DNA from: a virus
Virus record (IMG/VR): IMGVR_UViG_3300018890_000001
Location: 628-64,627 of that record
Reading direction: 5' to 3' (one strand)
DNA length: 64,000 nt
This document shows, piece by piece, positions 8 to 41,315 of the stretch (position 1 is the stretch's first letter; each line of letters opens with the position of its first letter). The notes under the pieces were generated by a model. It saw nothing but the letters and a program-made list of their open reading frames with translations. It ran no database searches and had not been told where the DNA came from. A program made the position numbers and the translations under genes.

Positions 8-1405
8 GTGATCATCGGATTTGCCGACGGTGAAAAGCGCACGAAGCTGAAGGGAAAAATTTGGTCGATCGGGCGCATCCCGCCAGACACTACCGTAATT
101 ATGATTGTCGATCCTTCCGCCGGTATTAAAGGAAGTACGTCCGCAACCAATTCAGCGGCAGAAAAACCTTCAGAACTAGAGCGTCCCGAATCAGACAAAA
201 TAGACCCGCACAAACTAGCGGTCGCGCTCAAAAAAGGGAAGATGGACCCGAAGAAAGTAGCTGAAGAACTAGCAGATCCGAAAAAAGCTGTCGGCGAGAA
301 GAAAACATCAAAATTTACTGCAAGTGGTTCAGGCGCAGCCACTAAGCCTGAAGAGAAAGAAGAGGAAAAACCGGATCTGTCTCCAGTCAAACCACCAGAA
401 AAAACCGCAACAGAACCTAAAAAAGAAGAGCAGTTTCAAGCAACTTTCAAAGGTCAGTCTCCTAGTTTCGACAAACTGATGGACAAGGTTAAGGAGACGA
501 GCGCATTAGCTAACGGTAATAAATTAAACTATTCCACCGCAGAACGTCTGTCATACACGGGTGCCAGTGGTGGCGCTCAGCTCAAATTCCAAAATAGTAC
601 CGACTTTAACGGTTCCAAAGGTGGGGAGGTACTGCTGGGTGCAGGAAAAGGTCACGCTGCAGCACTCGAAGCCATTCTCCAGGGAGACGTGATTGTCGTA
701 CCCCAAGGCGAGACGATGAAACAAGTCGGTCCCGGTCAAGGTGAACCGTCGGGAGTGATCCTAGATTACGCCAACAACCGAGCAGTATTTATCGGTAGAC
801 CGGAAATCACCAAGAGATCCCCGCTGCAACTTTCGTCAGGGCAAGGTGCAATCACCGTCGTCTCTCCGAATATCGAGCAAAAAACGGTGAACGGCGCGAC
901 TGTTGCAACTCCAGGCAAACCGGCACAACATCCTACGGGAATCGTAAAAATACCAAGCAAGGGTGAAATAAAGTTGGCCGATCCACTATCTCCTGGCTGT
1001 CCTTACACTTGGGGCGATATGACCCGAGAAGGGAAATTCACGGATGACCTAAAAGCAAGTCACATTGAAGGCGCGGTAAAAATATCGCAGTACCTCACGC
1101 AATGGACGGCGGAAACTGGCGGTAAAAAATGGGAAATTACTTCTTGGTTCAGACCGAGTTGGTACAACGTGCAGGTCGCTAGCAGTGGTGCGGACGGACC
1201 GCACACGCACGGCTCTGCGGTTGATTGTTGGTTTGAGGGATTCATGAAATTTTACGACAAGCTTGACGCTTCTTGGGATCACGGCGTCGCCATCAGTCCA
1301 GCCGGTAGTCCGACAGGTGAATTTATGCACATCGATTTAATTGCACCACCAAAACGACGCTGGGCGTACAGTCACCTCAGTTACACCTCTACGGGACTAT
1401 TCTAA
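8..1405 (+). CDS. Tail/baseplate-associated protein with C-terminal peptidase M15 domain (5'-partial)
   Basis: Frame is open from the window start. C-terminus ITSWFRPSWYN...HTHGSAVD...FMHID matches Zn-dependent M15 peptidases. The N-terminal part is tentatively hub-like. Confidence 0.75.
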   Translation: MIIGFADGEKRTKLKGKIWSIGRIPPDTTVIMIVDPSAGIKGSTSATNSAAEKPSELERPESDKIDPHKLAVALKKGKMDPKKVAEELADPKKAVGEKKTSKFTASGSGAATKPEEKEEEKPDLSPVKPPEKTATEPKKEEQFQATFKGQSPSFDKLMDKVKETSALANGNKLNYSTAERLSYTGASGGAQLKFQNSTDFNGSKGGEVLLGAGKGHAAALEAILQGDVIVVPQGETMKQVGPGQGEPSGVILDYANNRAVFIGRPEITKRSPLQLSSGQGAITVVSPNIEQKTVNGATVATPGKPAQHPTGIVKIPSKGEIKLADPLSPGCPYTWGDMTREGKFTDDLKASHIEGAVKISQYLTQWTAETGGKKWEITSWFRPSWYNVQVASSGADGPHTHGSAVDCWFEGFMKFYDKLDASWDHGVAISPAGSPTGEFMHIDLIAPPKRRWAYSHLSYTSTGLF

Positions 1406-3081
1406 TGGCTGACACAAAACCGACAACCACCAGTCCGATCGCCCCACAGACTACGATCGCAGATCCGACAAAACCAGCTACTCCGACTGCTGGCACAGCA
1501 ACAACTCCCGCGACCGCAACGACACCAGGCGCAACACCAACTGGAGGCACGGCAGCAGCGCCTGCCAAACCAGCGGAACCCATGTATCCGAGCGTGGAAG
1601 ACATTATGTTTGTCTGTCCGACAGCCAAGAAAGAAAATGTTGTTAAAAACCTGTCAGGAATTGTCGAGGAGATGGCGAAAGCTGGTTTAAATTCAAAAAA
1701 TAATTTAGTTGGAATTGTTGCAACTATTCACGTAGAAACAGAGATAGATCCGTTTAATCCAATTGAAGAAATCGATGGTCCGCGTCAGGCAATACTGAAC
1801 GGTTACAAAGGTGGTGCTGATTTTTTTGGACGTGGGTATATTCAAATCACACATGATTATAACTATAGAGATGCAGGTAAAGGAATTGGACTAGGAGATC
1901 AGTTAGTTAATAGTCCAAAAATGGCATTACAGCCAGAAGTTGCAGCAAAAGTTACAACGTGGTATTGGAAAACAAATGGTGTAGATAAAGCATCTGATGC
2001 AGGAGATTGGAGACAAGTTCGTAGGCTTGTCAACGGTGGTTATAATCACTACGACAAATTTTTTGCAGCGGTTCAACGCGGACTTGAAAGATTCACTAGA
2101 GGAATTAATTCTACTGGCGCGATCAACATGGGCACGTCCTATGGTGCTAGCGATGTAGATACCGGGGGAGGGCAATCGCGAACGGTTGTTGCAACAGGAG
2201 TACAAGGTCAAGCCGACATACTTGCGTATGCGTTAAACCTCCACGCACGAGATCGCATGAACTCTCATGAATTTTATGCGGTACTCGATTGTGCAGCAGA
2301 TCCAAGAATTCTTGATTTAGAAGCGCAGAAAACTTTTGAATTAAAAGGAATGTCGAAGGATCTTGACGGCGTTTACACCGTTGACGAGGTGACTTTTTTG
2401 CCGTTGACTGAAACTGTGCAGGCGATCGTCAAAGCAAAACGTCCAGATCCAAAAGCCGGTGCAGCAAACGCTTTCTTGTTTAACGCGCAGGGATTAGATC
2501 CGAAAGCTGGGGCCGCAGCCGATACGAATTCTACACCAGGGCAACCGGGTTCTGTCACGAAAATAAATGGGGAAGTAAAACTGGGTGTTCCTTTCAAATC
2601 GCAGAACGACAACGCTTTCAATCCAGGCGGTGCTTGTAATGCAACCAGCTTAGCGATGGCCTTGGAATTTTTAGGTGTAAAAGGGAAGGGTCCTGGTCAG
2701 TTCGAGGATGAAATTTATGAGCAATTACAAGCTTCTGGTGTTCACCCAGGGACACCAGGAGCAATGGTTGATATCGTTAAAAAATACGGAAAAACAGACA
2801 ACCATAACGGCGTCGCAACAGACGACGAAATCAGGAAACATCTCGACAAAGGCAAACCTGTAGTAATACACGGCGATTTCACAGAGAGTGGTCACATTCT
2901 TTGTGTGATTGGCTACAACGCCAAAGGATTTATAGTTAATGACCCTTATGGTAAATTCTTAGGCTCAATCGGAAGCTATGACAACAACGCTTCAGGTGCC
3001 AGCAATCTACATGAATATGCCACTGTCGTTAATACATTCTGGCACCAAAACGGGACAAACTCAGCCCATTTTATAGAATAA
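1405..3081 (+). CDS. Multidomain peptidoglycan hydrolase: GH19 lysozyme/chitinase + possible hub-like segment + C39-like peptidase
   Basis: GH19 motifs FFGRGYIQIT...NY and VRRLVNGG. C39-like motifs VPFKSQ...ACNATSLAM...GHILCVIGY...VNDPYG. Coupled to the previous ORF by TAATG. Confidence 0.85.
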   Translation: MADTKPTTTSPIAPQTTIADPTKPATPTAGTATTPATATTPGATPTGGTAAAPAKPAEPMYPSVEDIMFVCPTAKKENVVKNLSGIVEEMAKAGLNSKNNLVGIVATIHVETEIDPFNPIEEIDGPRQAILNGYKGGADFFGRGYIQITHDYNYRDAGKGIGLGDQLVNSPKMALQPEVAAKVTTWYWKTNGVDKASDAGDWRQVRRLVNGGYNHYDKFFAAVQRGLERFTRGINSTGAINMGTSYGASDVDTGGGQSRTVVATGVQGQADILAYALNLHARDRMNSHEFYAVLDCAADPRILDLEAQKTFELKGMSKDLDGVYTVDEVTFLPLTETVQAIVKAKRPDPKAGAANAFLFNAQGLDPKAGAAADTNSTPGQPGSVTKINGEVKLGVPFKSQNDNAFNPGGACNATSLAMALEFLGVKGKGPGQFEDEIYEQLQASGVHPGTPGAMVDIVKKYGKTDNHNGVATDDEIRKHLDKGKPVVIHGDFTESGHILCVIGYNAKGFIVNDPYGKFLGSIGSYDNNASGASNLHEYATVVNTFWHQNGTNSAHFIE

Positions 3082-3535: not shown

Positions 3536-3766
3536 ATGACGGAAAATACGATTCGCGCACTTACACCAGTTTGGTTATCGACGATCGGTCTTTTGATTTT
3601 TGCGATCGCCGCGTTTTCTAAATTAGATCCACCATCATTTTCGATCGCCGCAACTTTGGCATCAACGGCGATCGGTGCCGCCGGAGGCGCTTCGGTGCAG
3701 TCGAGCGGTAAGCGAATTAGTGCTGAAAATGTTGAGAACATTGAAATGGAAGCTCCCAAGCCATAA
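3536..3766 (+). CDS. Small two-TM membrane protein, holin candidate
   Basis: 76 aa with two hydrophobic segments and a charged tail; last gene of the hydrolase operon. Confidence 0.5.
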   Translation: MTENTIRALTPVWLSTIGLLIFAIAAFSKLDPPSFSIAATLASTAIGAAGGASVQSSGKRISAENVENIEMEAPKP

Positions 3767-5799: not shown

Positions 5800-8700
5800 T
5801 TGGAAAAAAATATGGATCTCAATCAATTCATCAACCCAGAACTTCCCGAATCGCACTTCCCAAACTTGCAGTCGGGTCAAGTTATCGGCTGGGTGCCAGC
5901 TACAGTTACCGACTTAGACGATCCAAAAGGTCTGGGTCGAATTCGTGTCAAAGTCGATTTAATCGATCCAAATACTTCAATCAGCAACCTTGAAGACGGT
6001 TGGTGCTGGGTAGGAGAACGTTACACCGTCAACGAAAAAGCGGGTGGCAGTCACCGACTGCTGCAAACGGGAACCCAAATTGCAGCGTTACCAATGTTGG
6101 GTGATATGCGTCAACTACTGTTGCTCGACTGTTTACCGAATATGTACGATCGCCCGAATCCTGATTTCAATCGCGCGCAAGGTCGGCATGGCGAAACGAC
6201 TCCGGGAGGAGTGACCGTTGCAAACGATGATACGAACCAAAGTCGAGTTGAAGCGTACCCGCACGGCGTAGTGAAATCAGTGTCAGGAGAAGGTGATGTT
6301 CAAACTTCAACTGCTGGTGGTGCCAGGTCGCAACTTACTAGAAACGGCGACGCGCGGATCGAATCACCCAAAGCGTTTTTACACGCGCTTGAAAATGGAG
6401 ATTTGTCGGTCGCCAACGGTAGTGGCGCTGGCATGGCATTACAGGCTAACGGAAACACGACCGTGAAGTCGGCCTTTGGATCTGGTGTAACTCTCGGAGA
6501 AAAAGGAGCTACTTACACGGGACCGCTCAGTGAAGCTTCTGAATCTGTCAAGAAAGCCCGCAACTTGCTACTAGGTAATATCGGTCGCGGGTTAAAAATC
6601 ATGGAATTACTCGAAGAAATAATGGGTGCGCTCAAGAGTGAAGACGCAGATCCGCAGCTTGCGAGTTCGGCTATCAACAATTTGCTCGATCGCCTCGAAA
6701 AATATTTCTCAACGGATTTTGAGCAAGGTATCGAAACAATGATCGAGCTCGCGAAGCTTTCAGAAAAGGAGCTCGGTCGAACAATTGGAGATCAAATTGG
6801 ACAAGCTTACGATATTGATTTAGCGTCGATTGTAGGCGAAGTTAAAGGAATTGTTGGCGGCGGTTTTCCTGAAAGTTCCCTCAGCAAAATCCGAGAGAAA
6901 GCGGCTCAGATAATTGCAACTAGCTTAGAAAAAGTTTTCACTTATTTTCCTTCACGGTTGCGCAATGTTAGCGCAAATATGTATTTGTCGGCGGTAACAC
7001 GCGAGGAAGCGGACAAATGGGCCGATGAAGTCCTCAGCGGGAATCCCGGAACACAAGCAATGGACTTTATTACTCGAATTCTGCAAGACGAACCAGGTGC
7101 GGGAACAGTATTGGCGGCGATCGAGCAGATTAAGGATGGAGATCCTGGGTATGATGATCTGCTTAAAAAATTAGGGAAGGCGATCGTACCTGCGGTGAGA
7201 GCTGCGTTTGGCGTTGAAGTAGAAGCAGAAGAAGAAATCAAACTAACAGACATCTTTTCAAAGCTGGCTGAAGATGAGGAAGTAGTAAAAGAACTCGCTG
7301 CTTCATTGAATATCGAAAAGAAGGATCTTGAAAGTCAGCTTACTCGTGGCGTTGCACTATCCAACTTACGGGCGAGACTCAAGGAAGTGGTGCCAGCACA
7401 GCTCGTGGAGACTGGTACATTTCCATCTAAAGAGCTGCGCAACAAACTTATTCCGATCATGGAAGGCTTAAAACACGATCCTGAAATGCAAATGCAGGTT
7501 CTAGTTTCTGAATGCGTCCCCAAAGGTTATGAATCAGTTAAGAATTTACTTGGTCTGGATGTCATTAACGGAATCAAAGTCACCGAAAAACCTTGGGCGA
7601 TCCTACGTCCTGGTGAGATTGAATCGACTAAAGACAAAGAAGAAATTACCGAAAAAATTGGAGCTGAGCAAAAAGCACTTTGCGAAAAAGCTGTTGGACC
7701 ACTGGAAGCTTGTAAAGTTTTTGTCAAATTAATTCCTACCGCTAGGCAAGCGGTACAAGCAGTAATTCGATCTGACGTGGAGCAGCTAGACTGGACAATG
7801 ACTCAGATTAAGGAATTGCTGCCTGAGAATGAAATCAAGATTGATTCTGTGCTGGCGATCGCAGAAAGCGCCTGCCGACCTCTGATTTCTCAGATGAAAC
7901 CAAAACTAACAGAAGCTTTGGCTGCGCTACAACCCTTGATTAACGCCATTCCCGACAATTTCCATGCAACCTCTTTTGAGATATCAGAAGCGTCTGGCGA
8001 AATTGTAGCTGCTGGTAAAAATGTAGGGGGTCGCCTCGTCCTCAACTCAACACAGGGTGCGATGTTTTCCCCCAACGGCAAAAGTTCGGTGTTCGCTGCG
8101 CCCAAAGATATGGGAATGAAACTCGGTAAAGAAAACTCATTCAACGTGCACCACGACGCTGACAAAAAGGATGATGACGGTCTAGAAGAGGCGTGGCAAA
8201 CCAATTTCAACAAAGGATCGATCGCCACGCGCAATTCAGAAGAAAAGGTTAAGTCCGCCGGGTGGGTAATGGATCGCAAAGGAGAATTTAAAGTTGCAAG
8301 CTATCCAGAAACCGAAAAAAATGAGAAACACAAATTTGATTTACATAAAGCCGGATTGGATTGGACAGGCCAAACTTCGGAGATGGGCGTTTCGGAGAAA
8401 AAAATGGGGGCTAAAACTTTTATAGATGAAGTCGCTCAATCAGCTTTTGGGATGGAGTCATCCGACGAGCTTAAAGGGGGAATCACATCACTTCAAACCT
8501 TTAAAGAAGGTCTGCCCCAAACAATGATGCGCTTCGCTGCGAACGAAGCTCTCGGTGCCGGCGGTGTAGCGACATTGCAGTCAATTCGCGAAGGCAAACC
8601 CGAAGCGGTATTCGATTTAATCGGTGGGAAAGCAGGCGAAGCCGCAAAAGCAGCACTCCAAACCCTCAAAGATGGCAATTTGGAGGCGGGCTTAGAATTT

Positions 8701-30256: not shown

Positions 30257-30505
30257 CAATTTGTTATCCCAAGGGCTTTTTATCCTTTGGTTCTACAGAT
30301 TTAAGTTTTCTGTAGGTCGGCGTACTTTTTGTATGTATATTCTTGTTACATACCTCCGCACTCTTGCCAATTTTATATTCTCTTTCGAGGTTCAATTGGT
30401 ACGCTCTACGGTGTCATGAGTTTTTTGGCTCTCGTGATTACCTCGGAATTGGCGTTTCAGCTTTCTCCGATTTTGCGAAGTTTTTAACGTGAGGCAAAAT
30501 TATCT
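30257..30505 (-). ncRNA. ORF-less group I intron (249 nt) in nrdJ
   Basis: The 5' exon ends in U paired to G in P1 and the intron ends in G. P10 pairs GAUAAUUUU with the 3' exon GAAAUUAUC. P7 pairs GAGCGUAC with GUACGCC with a bulged A. Removal restores NPCG-EII. Confidence 0.9.
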
Positions 30506-31729
30506 ACCACACGGATTTAGACCTAATCGCGATAAGCGATGATCTAACTCTTTAACAGGCATTGACGGATAACCATCTTGCATCCATTTTCGAGATTCAC
30601 CGCGATCGTAGGCTTCTAAGAATGAGGTTCTAAGGAGTTCGTTTGTAAGTAAATCTACATTGCATCTCGCAACCGCTTCGCCACCCCATTGGATCGCTCC
30701 TTCACCAGAGCGATATTGTTTAGCAACAGATTCTTTGCATTCTTCAAGTGTGGGTTTATGATGAAATACAAGCGAGTGATTAGCCATTCTTAAAGCATCA
30801 CGCTTTGGATCAATACGCCAATTTCCTTCCGTATCTTGCCCCCAAAGATTGTCCTTAGCGGATGCTCCGATTTTGTCGTTATGATTGAACTGTCGAATTC
30901 CTGCTGTTCGCCTAACGTTTCCGGCAACAATTACAATTGCCGCTTCATCAATTAACAAACTGCACTCAACTGAATTCAATCTGCGCCCGATTGCCCCATT
31001 TAATATTAAAGCGCACTTATCAAACAATTCGGGTAGTTTGATAGGGTTGGAAATGCCTCCGAACCCCTTAAGCTTTTCGCCAGCAGGACGTACAGAGCCT
31101 AGTCCAATATGGACTTTGATTGGTTCGTTAGCCAGATAACTACAATCGAACGCTAGATTGATCAACGCTTGATATGCGTCCACCCAACCTTTGCGGCTAT
31201 CTCCAACCCAAATCACAGATGTTATTGAGTTGTTGATCTGTTTAGTTTCATTTTTTCGTTGGTGTGGTGCGTACTCACCAATTTCAGAGAAGATTTCAAT
31301 CTTCAGTTGATTGCGGACTATCGGCAGGCGATCGATACAATCTTCAGTTAGGACTGCGCCAGTGCCGCAACCTTGCATTCCTAAATCCATCAACAAACCA
31401 AAAACTTCCAAGGATGTCAGCTTTAAACTGGTGCAGTTGTAAGCTCCTGGGAAGTTTTCTGGTTGTTCTATCCATTCTCGGCCGCCTACCCAAAGCCAGC
31501 GACCGGACGATAGACATTTGAAATTATACTGTTGCTCGTACAATAGGTCGTACTCCTCTTCACTTAACTTTCCTAGCTTTGAAATACCATCAATTGTCCG
31601 ATCGCACACTTCTTTCCAGGTTTCTCGGACACCGTTGTTGTTGTGTGAGTAGGAACGAAAAAATACAAATGGGGCTGATGGTGCATTTTCTGGGAACATT
31701 GGCATAATTGTTATTTCCTTGTGTTTCAA
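30506..31729 (-). CDS. nrdJ: Class II ribonucleotide reductase, exon 1
   Basis: FFRSYS...ETWKEVCDR...SGRWLWVGG...AYNCTS...GCGTG...GDSRKGW...AGNVRRTA...GLNPCG. Confidence 0.95.
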
Positions 31730-36581: not shown

Positions 36582-37751
36582 TTGGATACGTTTATGTATT
36601 TCACAAGTAGAAAACTGTCAAATAACTTAATTGTTGGTCTAAAAAAGGCTGAAGTTGTTTTCAATAACAAGAAGGATTGTTATGAGGTAAAGATACCACA
36701 ACTCGATCGCCAAGATTACGAGGAGTTTAAACAAGTTCTCGAAGAAATCCACGGTAAGTGGAACCATTCAGCAAACGCACACGTTTTCGAGTCCGATCCG
36801 ACAGAAATGTTAAATGCGGTGATTGAAGTGGGTTGTTTCCCTCAAAGGAAACCGCATGATGCGTTTTTTACGCCTCCAGATGTTGTAGACGATTTATTGC
36901 GATGGGGTGGCTTTCACTACTCTCAAGGAGTGAGTCATTATTACAAATGTTTAGAGCCTTCTGCCGGACACGGCTTTATAATCGATGTACTCAGAAGGAA
37001 ATACCCAGGAGTTGAAAAATGTTTTGACTGCTGCGAAATAGACGGTTTTAATCGGGATATTTTACAGCGAAAAGGTTACAACATTGTTGGCGATAATTTT
37101 TTACAAACCAAGCTCGAACCACAATATCACTGGGTAATTATGAACCCACCTTTCAACGGGAAGGCTGGCGATTATATAGCACATATTGAAGCTGCATTTG
37201 AATTGCTGCTTCCAGGTAGAGATTTGCTGGCGATCGTGCCCGAATCATTTCTAACTTCACAGGCTAAGCGCGTTGTGAAGTTTAGGAATAAAGTGTTTAC
37301 CTATGGTGAACACGCCAATTTACCCGACAAGGTTTTTGCTGAATCGGGAACTCAAATCAAATGCTGCATGATAAAAATGCAGAAGTACAGTCCTGTAAAG
37401 ATTCAAGAATTTGAAACACCAGGATATCTATACGATTACTTTGATCTTTATACAGGTCAAATTATCGTCAGCTTAACGAGTGAGTCAGAATGGTTTAAAC
37501 GTTTTAGCGCACTCGTCAATCAAGTCGAGCAAGGTAGGATAACTACAAAAGATATTTTTTTGAAGGAAGTTGTACGTGATGCGGATGATATTGTTTTATC
37601 TGCAATTTCACGTCATGAAGCTAGTTTCAGATGGGATGATTTCACCAAACAGAGATTAGCTGAATACTTTCTTCAAGATATGATTGATGAATATTTGGAT
37701 GGGCAGAATCCTTTCCAGAGTACAAAGCCTAGACAGTTATCGCTGTTCTAG
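36582..37751 (+). CDS. Orphan amino-DNA methyltransferase (N6A/N4C), phage type
   Basis: Motif I CLEPSAGHG and motif IV IMNPPF; N-terminal GKWN....HVF segment. Confidence 0.85.
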   Translation: MDTFMYFTSRKLSNNLIVGLKKAEVVFNNKKDCYEVKIPQLDRQDYEEFKQVLEEIHGKWNHSANAHVFESDPTEMLNAVIEVGCFPQRKPHDAFFTPPDVVDDLLRWGGFHYSQGVSHYYKCLEPSAGHGFIIDVLRRKYPGVEKCFDCCEIDGFNRDILQRKGYNIVGDNFLQTKLEPQYHWVIMNPPFNGKAGDYIAHIEAAFELLLPGRDLLAIVPESFLTSQAKRVVKFRNKVFTYGEHANLPDKVFAESGTQIKCCMIKMQKYSPVKIQEFETPGYLYDYFDLYTGQIIVSLTSESEWFKRFSALVNQVEQGRITTKDIFLKEVVRDADDIVLSAISRHEASFRWDDFTKQRLAEYFLQDMIDEYLDGQNPFQSTKPRQLSLF

Positions 37752-39399: not shown

Positions 39400-39891
39400 T
39401 TAATATTTTATTGGTTCAAGATCTTTCATTATTTGGCGGTTGCTGACGGTGACAATCAACTTAATGTTTTTACCTTTAAGTGGAGGTTGCCTATCAGGAA
39501 TAGTCGTTTTCTTTAGCCATTTGGGACTGTCATCCACAATAAGTTTGGATTCAACCAGCCCATCAAGTAGGAACTTTCGAGCACCTTCTAAATTGTCGTC
39601 ATCTATGCGATTGTCTACAAAAAACAGTAAATTTACCCAAGTGGGTTCTCTGTACTTGATTAATTGTCGACTTTCGACGATGTGAATTATTTTACTAATC
39701 CATATTTTCTTTTGCCTTTCGTACTCGCTCGATCTCCGAAACCTTTTCCCACGGTTGGTTGCGCCAGAGACACAAAGCGTCCGCATTGCCAGCATCTCAT
39801 TTGTGGTCGGCGGAATCTCATCTAGCGCAAAATTTTGTACCAAATGTGCGATTTTTACTATTTTGAAATCTTTTTTGCTTGTTCTTGTCAT
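39400..39891 (-). CDS. rusA: RusA-like Holliday junction resolvase
   Basis: DDDNLEGARKFLLDGL....IVDDS matches the RusA D-x-D-N..K...D...DD pattern. Confidence 0.8.
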   Translation of the reverse strand: MTRTSKKDFKIVKIAHLVQNFALDEIPPTTNEMLAMRTLCVSGATNRGKRFRRSSEYERQKKIWISKIIHIVESRQLIKYREPTWVNLLFFVDNRIDDDNLEGARKFLLDGLVESKLIVDDSPKWLKKTTIPDRQPPLKGKNIKLIVTVSNRQIMKDLEPIKY

Positions 39892-39921: not shown

Positions 39922-40530
39922 TCAGAAATTCTTTTGACGCAATCCGCCTATATAGCCACGCAAATACGCTTCAGATAAGTTTATAAGCTCTTGTCCTTTA
40001 AGTGCTTTAGGGCTGTTAACGTGATGCGTTACTACGCGGTCTTCATCATTGTGGTTGAATTTAGCTACGAATAAGCGCTGATCTGTGTTGTCTAGATTTA
40101 GTCCATCCAGACAACCTATATTTTGCGTAAACAAAAGTAGAGTTTTTTTGTGCGTTTTTGCGAGCTTAAATAGGTCTTCTGTTAATCTCCGACAAAGGCG
40201 CGGATCTAGATATAACCCAAAGTCTTCAAAACCTACAATGTGAGGTGAAAGGCTTGACGAAACTACAGTCAAATAAAAACAAACAAGCCGCTCATGTCTT
40301 TTGCGGATTGTCTTTTCTGTTAAGAGCGTGCGATCGAATCCCATCGCGTGAAGCAATTCTTCGAGTTTAAATGGATATTCCTTGAAGGCGTTTACGAGAT
40401 TATCAATTTGCGAATCAGAGTGATCAGTCTTGTAAATAAATTCAATGTCAATCAGTTTGTCAGCAAGCCCGTCAAGGGCTCCTGTTTCTCCAATAAAGAC
40501 GTTAAATTGTGACAAATTCAGTTTTAACAT
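39922..40530 (-). CDS. Second degenerate AAA_21/ABC-type ATPase homologue
   Basis: FNVFIGETGA (no GKS), GFEDFGLYLDP (vs IDEPENGLHP), LFTQN (vs TTHN/S) and C-terminal LSEAYLRGYIGG. Confidence 0.6.
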   Translation of the reverse strand: MLKLNLSQFNVFIGETGALDGLADKLIDIEFIYKTDHSDSQIDNLVNAFKEYPFKLEELLHAMGFDRTLLTEKTIRKRHERLVCFYLTVVSSSLSPHIVGFEDFGLYLDPRLCRRLTEDLFKLAKTHKKTLLLFTQNIGCLDGLNLDNTDQRLFVAKFNHNDEDRVVTHHVNSPKALKGQELINLSEAYLRGYIGGLRQKNF

Positions 40531-40613
40531 TCGTTGTGTAAAATGAATTTCCTTTCTGCAACCGCAATTAAGCCCAACCTTTGGATGGTTGGGTCTTCAC
40601 GGTGTTTGACATT

Positions 40614-40862
40614 CTATTGGAATTCGGAAAGAATGGTACGGTATTCCTCACACGTTCTTTCGAGGTGTTCGAGTTTGCGGTAGCAATTGCGTTCGCTTCT
40701 AGTCACTTGGTTCAACATTGTTGAGTAAACCTGTTGTTGTTCCGCGTTTTTGTGGGCTAATTGCATGAACAGTTTCTGTAACTCGCAAATATCTAGTTCT
40801 CGTATTTCGTGACTCAAGCTAGCGAGCCGCGCCTGTACTTCGAGCGGTAATTCAATATCCAT
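40614..40862 (-). CDS. nblA: NblA-like phycobilisome degradation adaptor with C-terminal extension
   Basis: IELPLEVQARLASLSHEIRELDICELQKLFMQLAHKNAEQQQVYSTML aligns without gaps, by eye, to the NblA pattern (ELSLEQQF...V..MS.EQA...L..L.EQM......Y..LL). Confidence 0.6.
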   Translation of the reverse strand: MDIELPLEVQARLASLSHEIRELDICELQKLFMQLAHKNAEQQQVYSTMLNQVTRSERNCYRKLEHLERTCEEYRTILSEFQ

Positions 40863-41315
40863 ACCACGGTTTCTCTCTTGCAAAAAGTTGGGTTACGTAA
40901 ATGCGGAAGCCGTTAGTACCGTCTTCATCGTGAACTTCGCTGTCGATCACCTGTTCTCGAAATTTCTGTAACGATATTCTGAAACTTCTGCGGTCGCTAC
41001 GTTTTCTCTGATTTCGATAAGCCTAAGTGCTTTCACTTTGTCAGCTCGCGGATCGGACCCGGTGTGACAAATTGCACCTTCCCAAACATCAGCGTCGCAC
41101 ATCCACTGACTGTGCTCTCGCGCGATGTCGCTTATTTTATCTACAAGCTTTAAGGGGGGTAGCTTGAGACTTGTTCGGTGCTGATTGACGACATCAAATA
41201 TTACAGACTCGAATTCGATATCATTGTTCGACTGATGGATTTCGATGGGTAGGCGATCGACAGAAGGCTCTGGGGTTGGGAATAGATTGAAAAAGTTGAA
41301 AAGTGTACTTGTCAT
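40852..41315 (-). pseudogene. CAP/SCP-domain protein, split between frames
   Basis: VNQHR....PPL....IAREHSQWM...H...R...ENVA in ORF 40947-41315. The C-terminal YVTQLF motif lies in the -1 frame, ending at 40852. Confidence 0.6.

Follow-up and report, generated by a model that had tools for sequence, protein, structure and literature searches.

An 82-residue protein encoded by a phage of a cyanobacterial host is very probably a homologue of NblA, and its last 30 residues are predicted to prolong the second NblA helix as a coiled coil. NblA itself is a dimeric helix-loop-helix adaptor of ~60 amino acids, which binds phycobiliproteins and ClpC and induces the breakdown of both the rods and the core of the phycobilisome (review PMC7966870). 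We place the phage protein in the NblA lineage, as a subfamily that is both divergent and extended. The original prediction had offered the same reading of its identity, namely a distant relative of NblA whose extension is a coiled coil, and this part is now supported by the family profile, hhalign, AlphaFold2 (AF2) and the ESM Atlas. It had also proposed that the phage directs antenna degradation and that the extension may alter dimerisation or protease recruitment. By the curated thresholds, the 82-residue protein is not a member of the Pfam family PF04485.

The window, that is, the whole stretch of 64,000 nucleotides analysed here, comes from an IMG/VR virus record of 199,763 bp that is complete according to CheckV and contains the NblA-like gene in one copy. 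The predicted open reading frame is real: the list of reading frames and the sequence place a coding sequence for 82 amino acids (P0001) at 40614..40862 on the minus strand, stop codon included, with an ATG start and a TAG stop at 40614-40616. All nine homologues sharing 68-87% identity with the protein are also 82 residues long and begin with the identical Met. Therefore, an 89-residue version initiated from the TTG at 40883 is unlikely. In the metagenomic relative L007, the upstream gene stops 10 nt before the equivalent ATG.

The comparison with the L007 gene (71% amino-acid identity) gave a dN/dS of 0.12 for the whole gene; the core (residues 1-52) is at 0.08 and the tail (residues 53-82) at 0.20. 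As the values are low in both parts, both halves are protein-coding and constrained, and the gene is under purifying selection.

The 82-residue protein had no match to PF04485 at E<=10 when it was examined with HMMER, as the original prediction had proposed, and a six-frame search of the whole phage record with the same family gave no match either. No NblA match was obtained for the protein in NCBIfam or PHROGs even at E<=10, and thus the curated thresholds of PF04485 (25 bits) and NF045916 were not reached. The gene was not matched by megablast or tblastn among 50,697 phage records, and the search of viral contigs and genome contigs with the family alignment revealed no relatives. A 50-residue NblA fragment found nothing, or only a match at E=0.08, in genome contigs, phages and plasmids. 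Against a hidden Markov model (HMM) built from 125 NblA sequences, the protein scored 6.6 bits, a value attained by 1.4% of the shuffled sequences, which places it among the weakest members of its family. Because of this weak score of the single protein, the link to NblA is a transitive one, via the family profile.

The best Pfam match of the protein was DUF6614 (E=0.0018, below threshold). This match and those to Transcrip_act and to the N-terminus of IstB, also below threshold, were dismissed as noise from helical sequences, since none of these families is hit by the family profile in the PDB. In NCBIfam, 11 of the 19 members weakly resemble the helices at the N-terminus of IstB, the helper ATPase of IS21, and these matches (best E=3.2e-4) fall well short of the 300-bit cut-off. 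Since IstB is present in the PDB and was not matched by the family profile at E<=10, this resemblance is also probably noise of the helical pattern.

The relatives of the protein were gathered by an exhaustive profile search into a family alignment of 19 sequences (A3), in which the more distant members added are 84-93 residues long, with one of 66 residues. When the profile of these 19 sequences was run against 177,635 distinct PDB sequences, the NblA of S. elongatus (3cs5) was found at E=1.4e-5 (28.4 bits) and the NblA of Nostoc PCC 7120 (1ojh) at E=2.2e-3. These two were the only matches below E=0.06, the value at which the next one, an unrelated coiled coil, appeared. The profile made from 10 close homologues gave NblA as its single PDB match (E=0.16) and paired positions 3-52 with residues 8-57 of 3cs5 with no gap. 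The larger profile pairs, again gapless, its positions 3-53 with 3cs5 (residues 7-57) and its positions 4-53 with 1ojh (residues 5-54), so that little of either NblA chain is left uncovered. HMMER thus reproduced with both structures what the original prediction had seen by eye, an alignment of the first 50 residues to NblA with no gap.

The similarity was also examined between alignments. For this, an NblA set of 125 sequences was used, consisting of 120 proteins and five individually added ones: those of the Ma-LMM01 phage, Acaryochloris, Kovacikia, a divergent Nostoc flagelliforme sequence and the Nostoc PCC 7120 plasmid sequence that served as the query. The hhalign comparison of the family with this set gave a probability of 81.9% and E=1.1e-5 over 55 columns (E=4.6e-4 with a narrower NblA alignment), and the control with a reversed alignment gave a probability of 0.3%. 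In the other direction, all 125 NblA sequences scored positively against the family HMM with a median of 16.3 bits, the Ma-LMM01 protein reaching 14.8 bits. Reversed NblA sequences scored <=2.0 bits and only 1 of 5000 shuffled sequences reached 12 bits; as these controls are far lower, the similarity to NblA is more than chance. Sub-threshold matches to PF04485 (best E 1.3e-4) and to the NblA model NF045916 of NCBIfam (best E 4e-4) were each found for 5 of the 19 family members, and one member, P0011, covered positions 1-48 of the 50 in the Pfam NblA profile (E=1.2e-3).

The NblA-like core delimited by HMMER, hhalign, AF2 and the ESM Atlas comprises residues 1-52 (40707..40862, minus strand). 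Its most conserved block in the family is L5-P6-L7-E8, which is paired with the invariant L7-S8-L9-E10 of NblA; L5, L7 and E8 are invariant in the family and P6 is nearly so. The pentapeptide L-P-L-E-V is identical to the L-S-L-E-Q of NblA at three of five positions, Ser being replaced by Pro and Gln by Val. The Gln position (profile position 6) is relaxed in marine cyanophage NblAs, too (10.1101/494369).

Where helix 2 of NblA ends, the Nostoc residues Y48, L51 and L52 are matched by Y46, M49 and L50, and these positions are aromatic or hydrophobic throughout the family. L51 and K53 (Nostoc numbering) are the residues with which NblA binds phycobiliproteins. The equivalent of L51, M49, is hydrophobic in all family members, and the equivalent of K53 is N51, a position that varies across the family. 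In S-TIP37, whose viral NblA is experimentally active, the K53 position is occupied by Thr (PMC12695635, Extended Data Fig. 8); therefore, the missing Lys need not be disqualifying.

The AF2 model of the monomer, computed with the 19-sequence alignment (pLDDT 91.6, pTM 0.50), has two helices, the first short and the second long, as in the NblA fold. Helix 1 is formed by residues 7-22 (40797-40844, minus strand), the chain breaks at L23-D24 (40791-40796, minus strand), and the second helix runs through residues 25-81, its first half (residues 25-52) lying within 40707..40862 of the minus strand. As residue i of the 82-residue protein corresponds to residue i+2 of 1ojh in the gapless alignment, the break sits on the NblA loop N24-M25-S26. 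An AF2 run with a shallow alignment had given one unbroken helix and was superseded by the run with the deeper one.

Meanwhile, the ESM Atlas model of the sequence, likewise a monomer, had as its top structural neighbour an NblA/ycf18 cluster from cyanobacteria whose members all (100%) carry PF04485; over 63 aligned residues, TM is 0.72 relative to the query and 0.90 relative to the length of the NblA. The feature search in the same atlas led to viral clusters without names (best 0.83), which we treat only as a lead. Searches with the AF2 model did not retrieve NblA: Foldseek against the PDB and BFVD gave nothing at E<=0.001, and VIA-align against 48,161 chains gave generic coiled coils with Z <=6.7. 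Because generic coiled coils are to be expected for a helix of 57 residues, we regard this outcome as uninformative rather than negative.

The C-terminal extension comprises residues 53-82 (40617..40706, minus strand) and was delimited by the AF2 helix 25-81, conservation, heptad scoring and the A3 alignment. According to the alignment, it begins directly after the phycobiliprotein-binding end of NblA helix 2. A single heptad register covers residues 46-82 with the core positions 46, 50, 53, 57, 60, 64, 67, 71, 74, 78 and 81, and the hydrophobic fraction across the family is 0.86 in the core and 0.16 at the other positions. Together with the AF2 helix, this register bears out the ~30 extra helical residues that had been predicted. 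In NblA, two chains pair as a homodimer or heterodimer into a four-helix bundle; in the phage protein, the heptad pattern suggests that the tail may self-associate. Its charge is balanced (six basic and six acidic residues), and S56, E57, L64 and E68 are nearly invariant across the family.

Two cysteines lie in the core of the tail, Cys60 (40683-40685, minus strand) at a d position and Cys71 (40650-40652, minus strand) at an a position. Among the 18 family members that reach the tail region, Cys60 is kept in 17 and Cys71 in 16. Their placement is compatible with a dimer in which Cys60 and Cys71 might meet across the interface as a disulfide or a metal site. The close subfamily has Tyr at position 74 (Tyr74, 40641-40643, minus strand; C-x10-C-x2-Y), where distant members have Cys. 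Most of the latter, among them P0011, P0013 and P0016-P0019, have the pattern C-x10-C-x2-C, with a CxxC at 71/74. The pattern may point to a site for a metal or a disulfide, reduced in the close subfamily. The 66-residue member, P0014, which is encoded on a 1.3-kb contig, is as long as NblA and has no coiled-coil tail, which would fit either a true short form or the product of a truncated or frameshifted gene.

The NblA-like gene is located in a block of minus-strand genes extending from 42876 to 37800, in which the genes are small and mostly unannotated. The block also includes a RusA-like resolvase gene (39400-39891, minus strand), and a DNA methyltransferase gene (36582-37751, plus strand) lies near it. 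The gene order is kept in L007 and L008, two relatives from metagenomes whose proteins are 58-89% and 30-54% identical, respectively: the genes for 149-, 185- and 225-residue proteins, the CAP-domain gene, the NblA-like gene and RusA. The position of the NblA-like gene between the CAP-domain gene and RusA is thus common to relatives with 71% and 37% identity. In L007 and L008, RusA follows the NblA-like gene directly. The 202-residue gene that lies between the two in the window (39922-40530, minus strand) is a lineage-specific insertion since it has no counterpart in either relative.

The CAP/SCP-domain gene directly upstream (40852-41315, minus strand) is broken in the window and intact in L007 (180 residues) and L008 (171 residues). 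Its 122-residue reading frame at 40947-41315 corresponds to residues 1-122 of the L007 protein, and a 32-residue fragment at 40852-40950, in another frame and with a GTGA start/stop overlap, corresponds to residues 156-180; ~33 codons are missing.

The upstream spacer of the NblA-like gene (40863..40899, minus strand) contains a purine-rich GAGAGA about 11 to 16 nt before the ATG and overlaps the tail fragment of the broken CAP gene. No convincing sigma-70-like promoter was found directly upstream of the NblA-like gene, and the nearest one on the minus strand lies where the gene block begins, at 42926-42898. Directly 3' of the stop codon, a weak hairpin (40561..40603, minus strand; predicted fold -19.6 kcal/mol, z -1.5, poor U-run) might possibly serve as a terminator or as an RNA-stabilising stem. 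In L007, the NblA-like gene is followed by a stronger hairpin (6809-6869, plus strand; -19.9 kcal/mol, z -3.95) and then by a U/A run; the hairpin of the window is in the same place, but it is different and weaker.

Two further genes were seen elsewhere in the window. The 558-residue protein encoded at 1405-3081 (plus strand) has a GH19 chitinase-like domain and a Peptidase_C39_2 domain and is probably an endolysin. The 409-residue reading frame at 30500-31729 (minus strand) resembles a B12-dependent ribonucleotide reductase in the insertion and alpha-domain parts alone; this enzyme may be split or present only in part.

The palindromic HIP1 octamer GCGATCGC occurs 16 times in the window (for example, at 3602, 38035 and 57746) compared with 1.0 expected, and none of 100 shuffled sequences reached this number. 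It is also enriched in the relatives, with five copies in the 12.8 kb of L007 and two in the 4.9 kb of L008. The FtsK/HerA-like ATPase of the window, searched against 72,556 plasmids, had homologues only in Nostoc, Tolypothrix, Microchaete and Calothrix. According to the HIP1 enrichment and these plasmid homologues, all from Nostocales, the host is cyanobacterial, and it is probably a filamentous, probably terrestrial cyanobacterium. Thus, the setting assumed in the original prediction, a phage with a cyanobacterial host, is borne out by the virus record, HIP1 and the plasmid homologues. No second NblA, Photo_RC (psbA/psbD), ClpP or phycobiliprotein gene was found in the phage. As the phage has no ClpP, any action of the NblA type must rely on the ClpC-ClpP of the host.

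On the basis of this analysis, we consider it fairly probable that the protein is a phage NblA-type adaptor which still directs the degradation of the phycobilisome antenna. Residues 1-52 would constitute the NblA core, in which the hydrophobic pattern of helix 2 is preserved, and helix 2 would be extended by 30 residues with two cysteines in a hydrophobic seam. During the infection of a filamentous cyanobacterium, the protein would hand phycobilisome proteins over to the host ClpC-ClpP, which would then strip or degrade the antenna, as in experiments with other viral NblAs. The extension would most likely lengthen or lock the dimer, possibly via inter-chain disulfides, and could reshape the phycobiliprotein-binding end. 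For the 82-residue protein, we infer dimerisation, the binding of ClpC and phycobiliproteins, the loss of the antenna and the roles of the cysteines.

The protein could also be derived from NblA and have ceased to be an adaptor of phycobilisome degradation, which appears rather unlikely to us. It would then be either a retargeted ClpC adaptor, whose coiled-coil tail recruits other host proteins (e.g., defence or regulatory ones) to ClpC proteolysis, or an anti-NblA, which forms heterodimers with the host NblA or occupies ClpC, so that bleaching is blocked and the antenna is kept working. Such a shift of function would fit the strong conservation of the N-terminal L-P-L-E together with the variable K53-equivalent position, and the start of the extension at the phycobiliprotein-binding end of helix 2, where it could occlude binding. 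It also finds parallels in known systems: a viral NblA expressed in Synechococcus caused the cleavage of proteins beyond the phycobilisome (PMC12695635), and the NblA proteins of Synechocystis can work as heterodimers, as cited in PMC7966870. However, the family retains the conserved Tyr, the L51-equivalent and the Leu beside it, Lys is missing at position 53 in an active viral NblA as well (PMC12695635), and the sequence identifies no partner or target for the altered function.

Very improbable, in our estimation, is the origin of the protein as an unrelated small coiled-coil protein of the phage (structural, regulatory or a DNA-binding helper) with a convergent or artefactual likeness to NblA. 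This explanation would account for the lack of a match at any curated threshold, for the sub-threshold matches to DUF6614 and other helical families, for the weak IstB matches in 11 of the 19 members and for the generic coiled coils that were all the structure searches with the AF2 model returned. It is opposed by the two independent NblA structures that were the only significant PDB matches, both gapless and with the loop in register, and by the failure of the reversed and shuffled controls. Moreover, the ESMFold-based structure search independently ranked NblA first, the host is cyanobacterial, and IstB, though available in the PDB, was not matched.

The gene suggests that large phages of filamentous cyanobacteria from mats and soil crusts can carry NblA relatives which escape the curated models; counts of viral genes for antenna degradation would therefore come out too low. 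Such phages have been reported without nblA, the 239-kb Microcoleus phages described in a preprint being the case in point (10.1101/2023.04.12.536658). What is new is the C-terminal extension, predicted to be a structured coiled coil and beginning exactly where the phycobiliprotein-binding end lies. An extension at the antenna-binding end would be a natural experiment on the remodelling of the adaptor dimer and of its binding surfaces. The cysteine-bearing tail might even define a new functional class, namely a redox- or metal-gated dimer, a retargeting of ClpC or a block of the host NblA, which we regard as unlikely. With a redox- or metal-gated dimer, if true, antenna degradation would be switched on only in a particular state of the cell.

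Compared with cyanobacterial NblA (PF04485; 1OJH and 3CS5), the phage protein has the same helix-loop-helix of ~50 residues, the L-x-L-E motif, the position of the loop and, at the end of helix 2, the Tyr and the hydrophobic pair. Meanwhile, the identity is only ~16%, the phage protein stays below the Pfam and NCBIfam thresholds, and it has Val in place of Q11, Pro in place of S8 and Asn (variable) in place of K53. Cyanobacterial NblA is encoded by the host and has a short unstructured tail, whereas the present protein is encoded by a phage and carries 30 additional residues with a cysteine-bearing heptad repeat.

Viral NblAs are active and beneficial to the phage (10.1101/494369; PMC12695635), and in marine cyanobacteria a viral NblA led to faster infection and lower photosynthesis (PMC12695635). 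The NblA of the Microcystis phage Ma-LMM01 (79 residues) resembles the present protein in being encoded by a phage, in being longer than host NblA and in having an additional helix. However, this helix is N-terminal and is predicted to deepen the binding in the phycocyanin groove (PMC11477984), whereas the present extension is C-terminal and a coiled coil. The core of the Ma-LMM01 protein is close to that of host NblA, so that a plain tblastn search with the Nostoc NblA finds it at E=4e-5; the same search misses the present protein. The NblA of the marine T7-like cyanophage S-TIP37 (78 residues) and other marine phage NblAs, including experimentally active ones, share with it the poor scores against the Pfam NblA model (10.1101/494369), the relaxed Gln position (Val here) and the absence of Lys at position 53 (Thr in S-TIP37, Asn here). 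In contrast, the marine proteins are made of two helices with unstructured termini and follow the classical dimer model (PMC12695635), whereas the extra length of the present protein is predicted to be a structured coiled coil with conserved cysteines.
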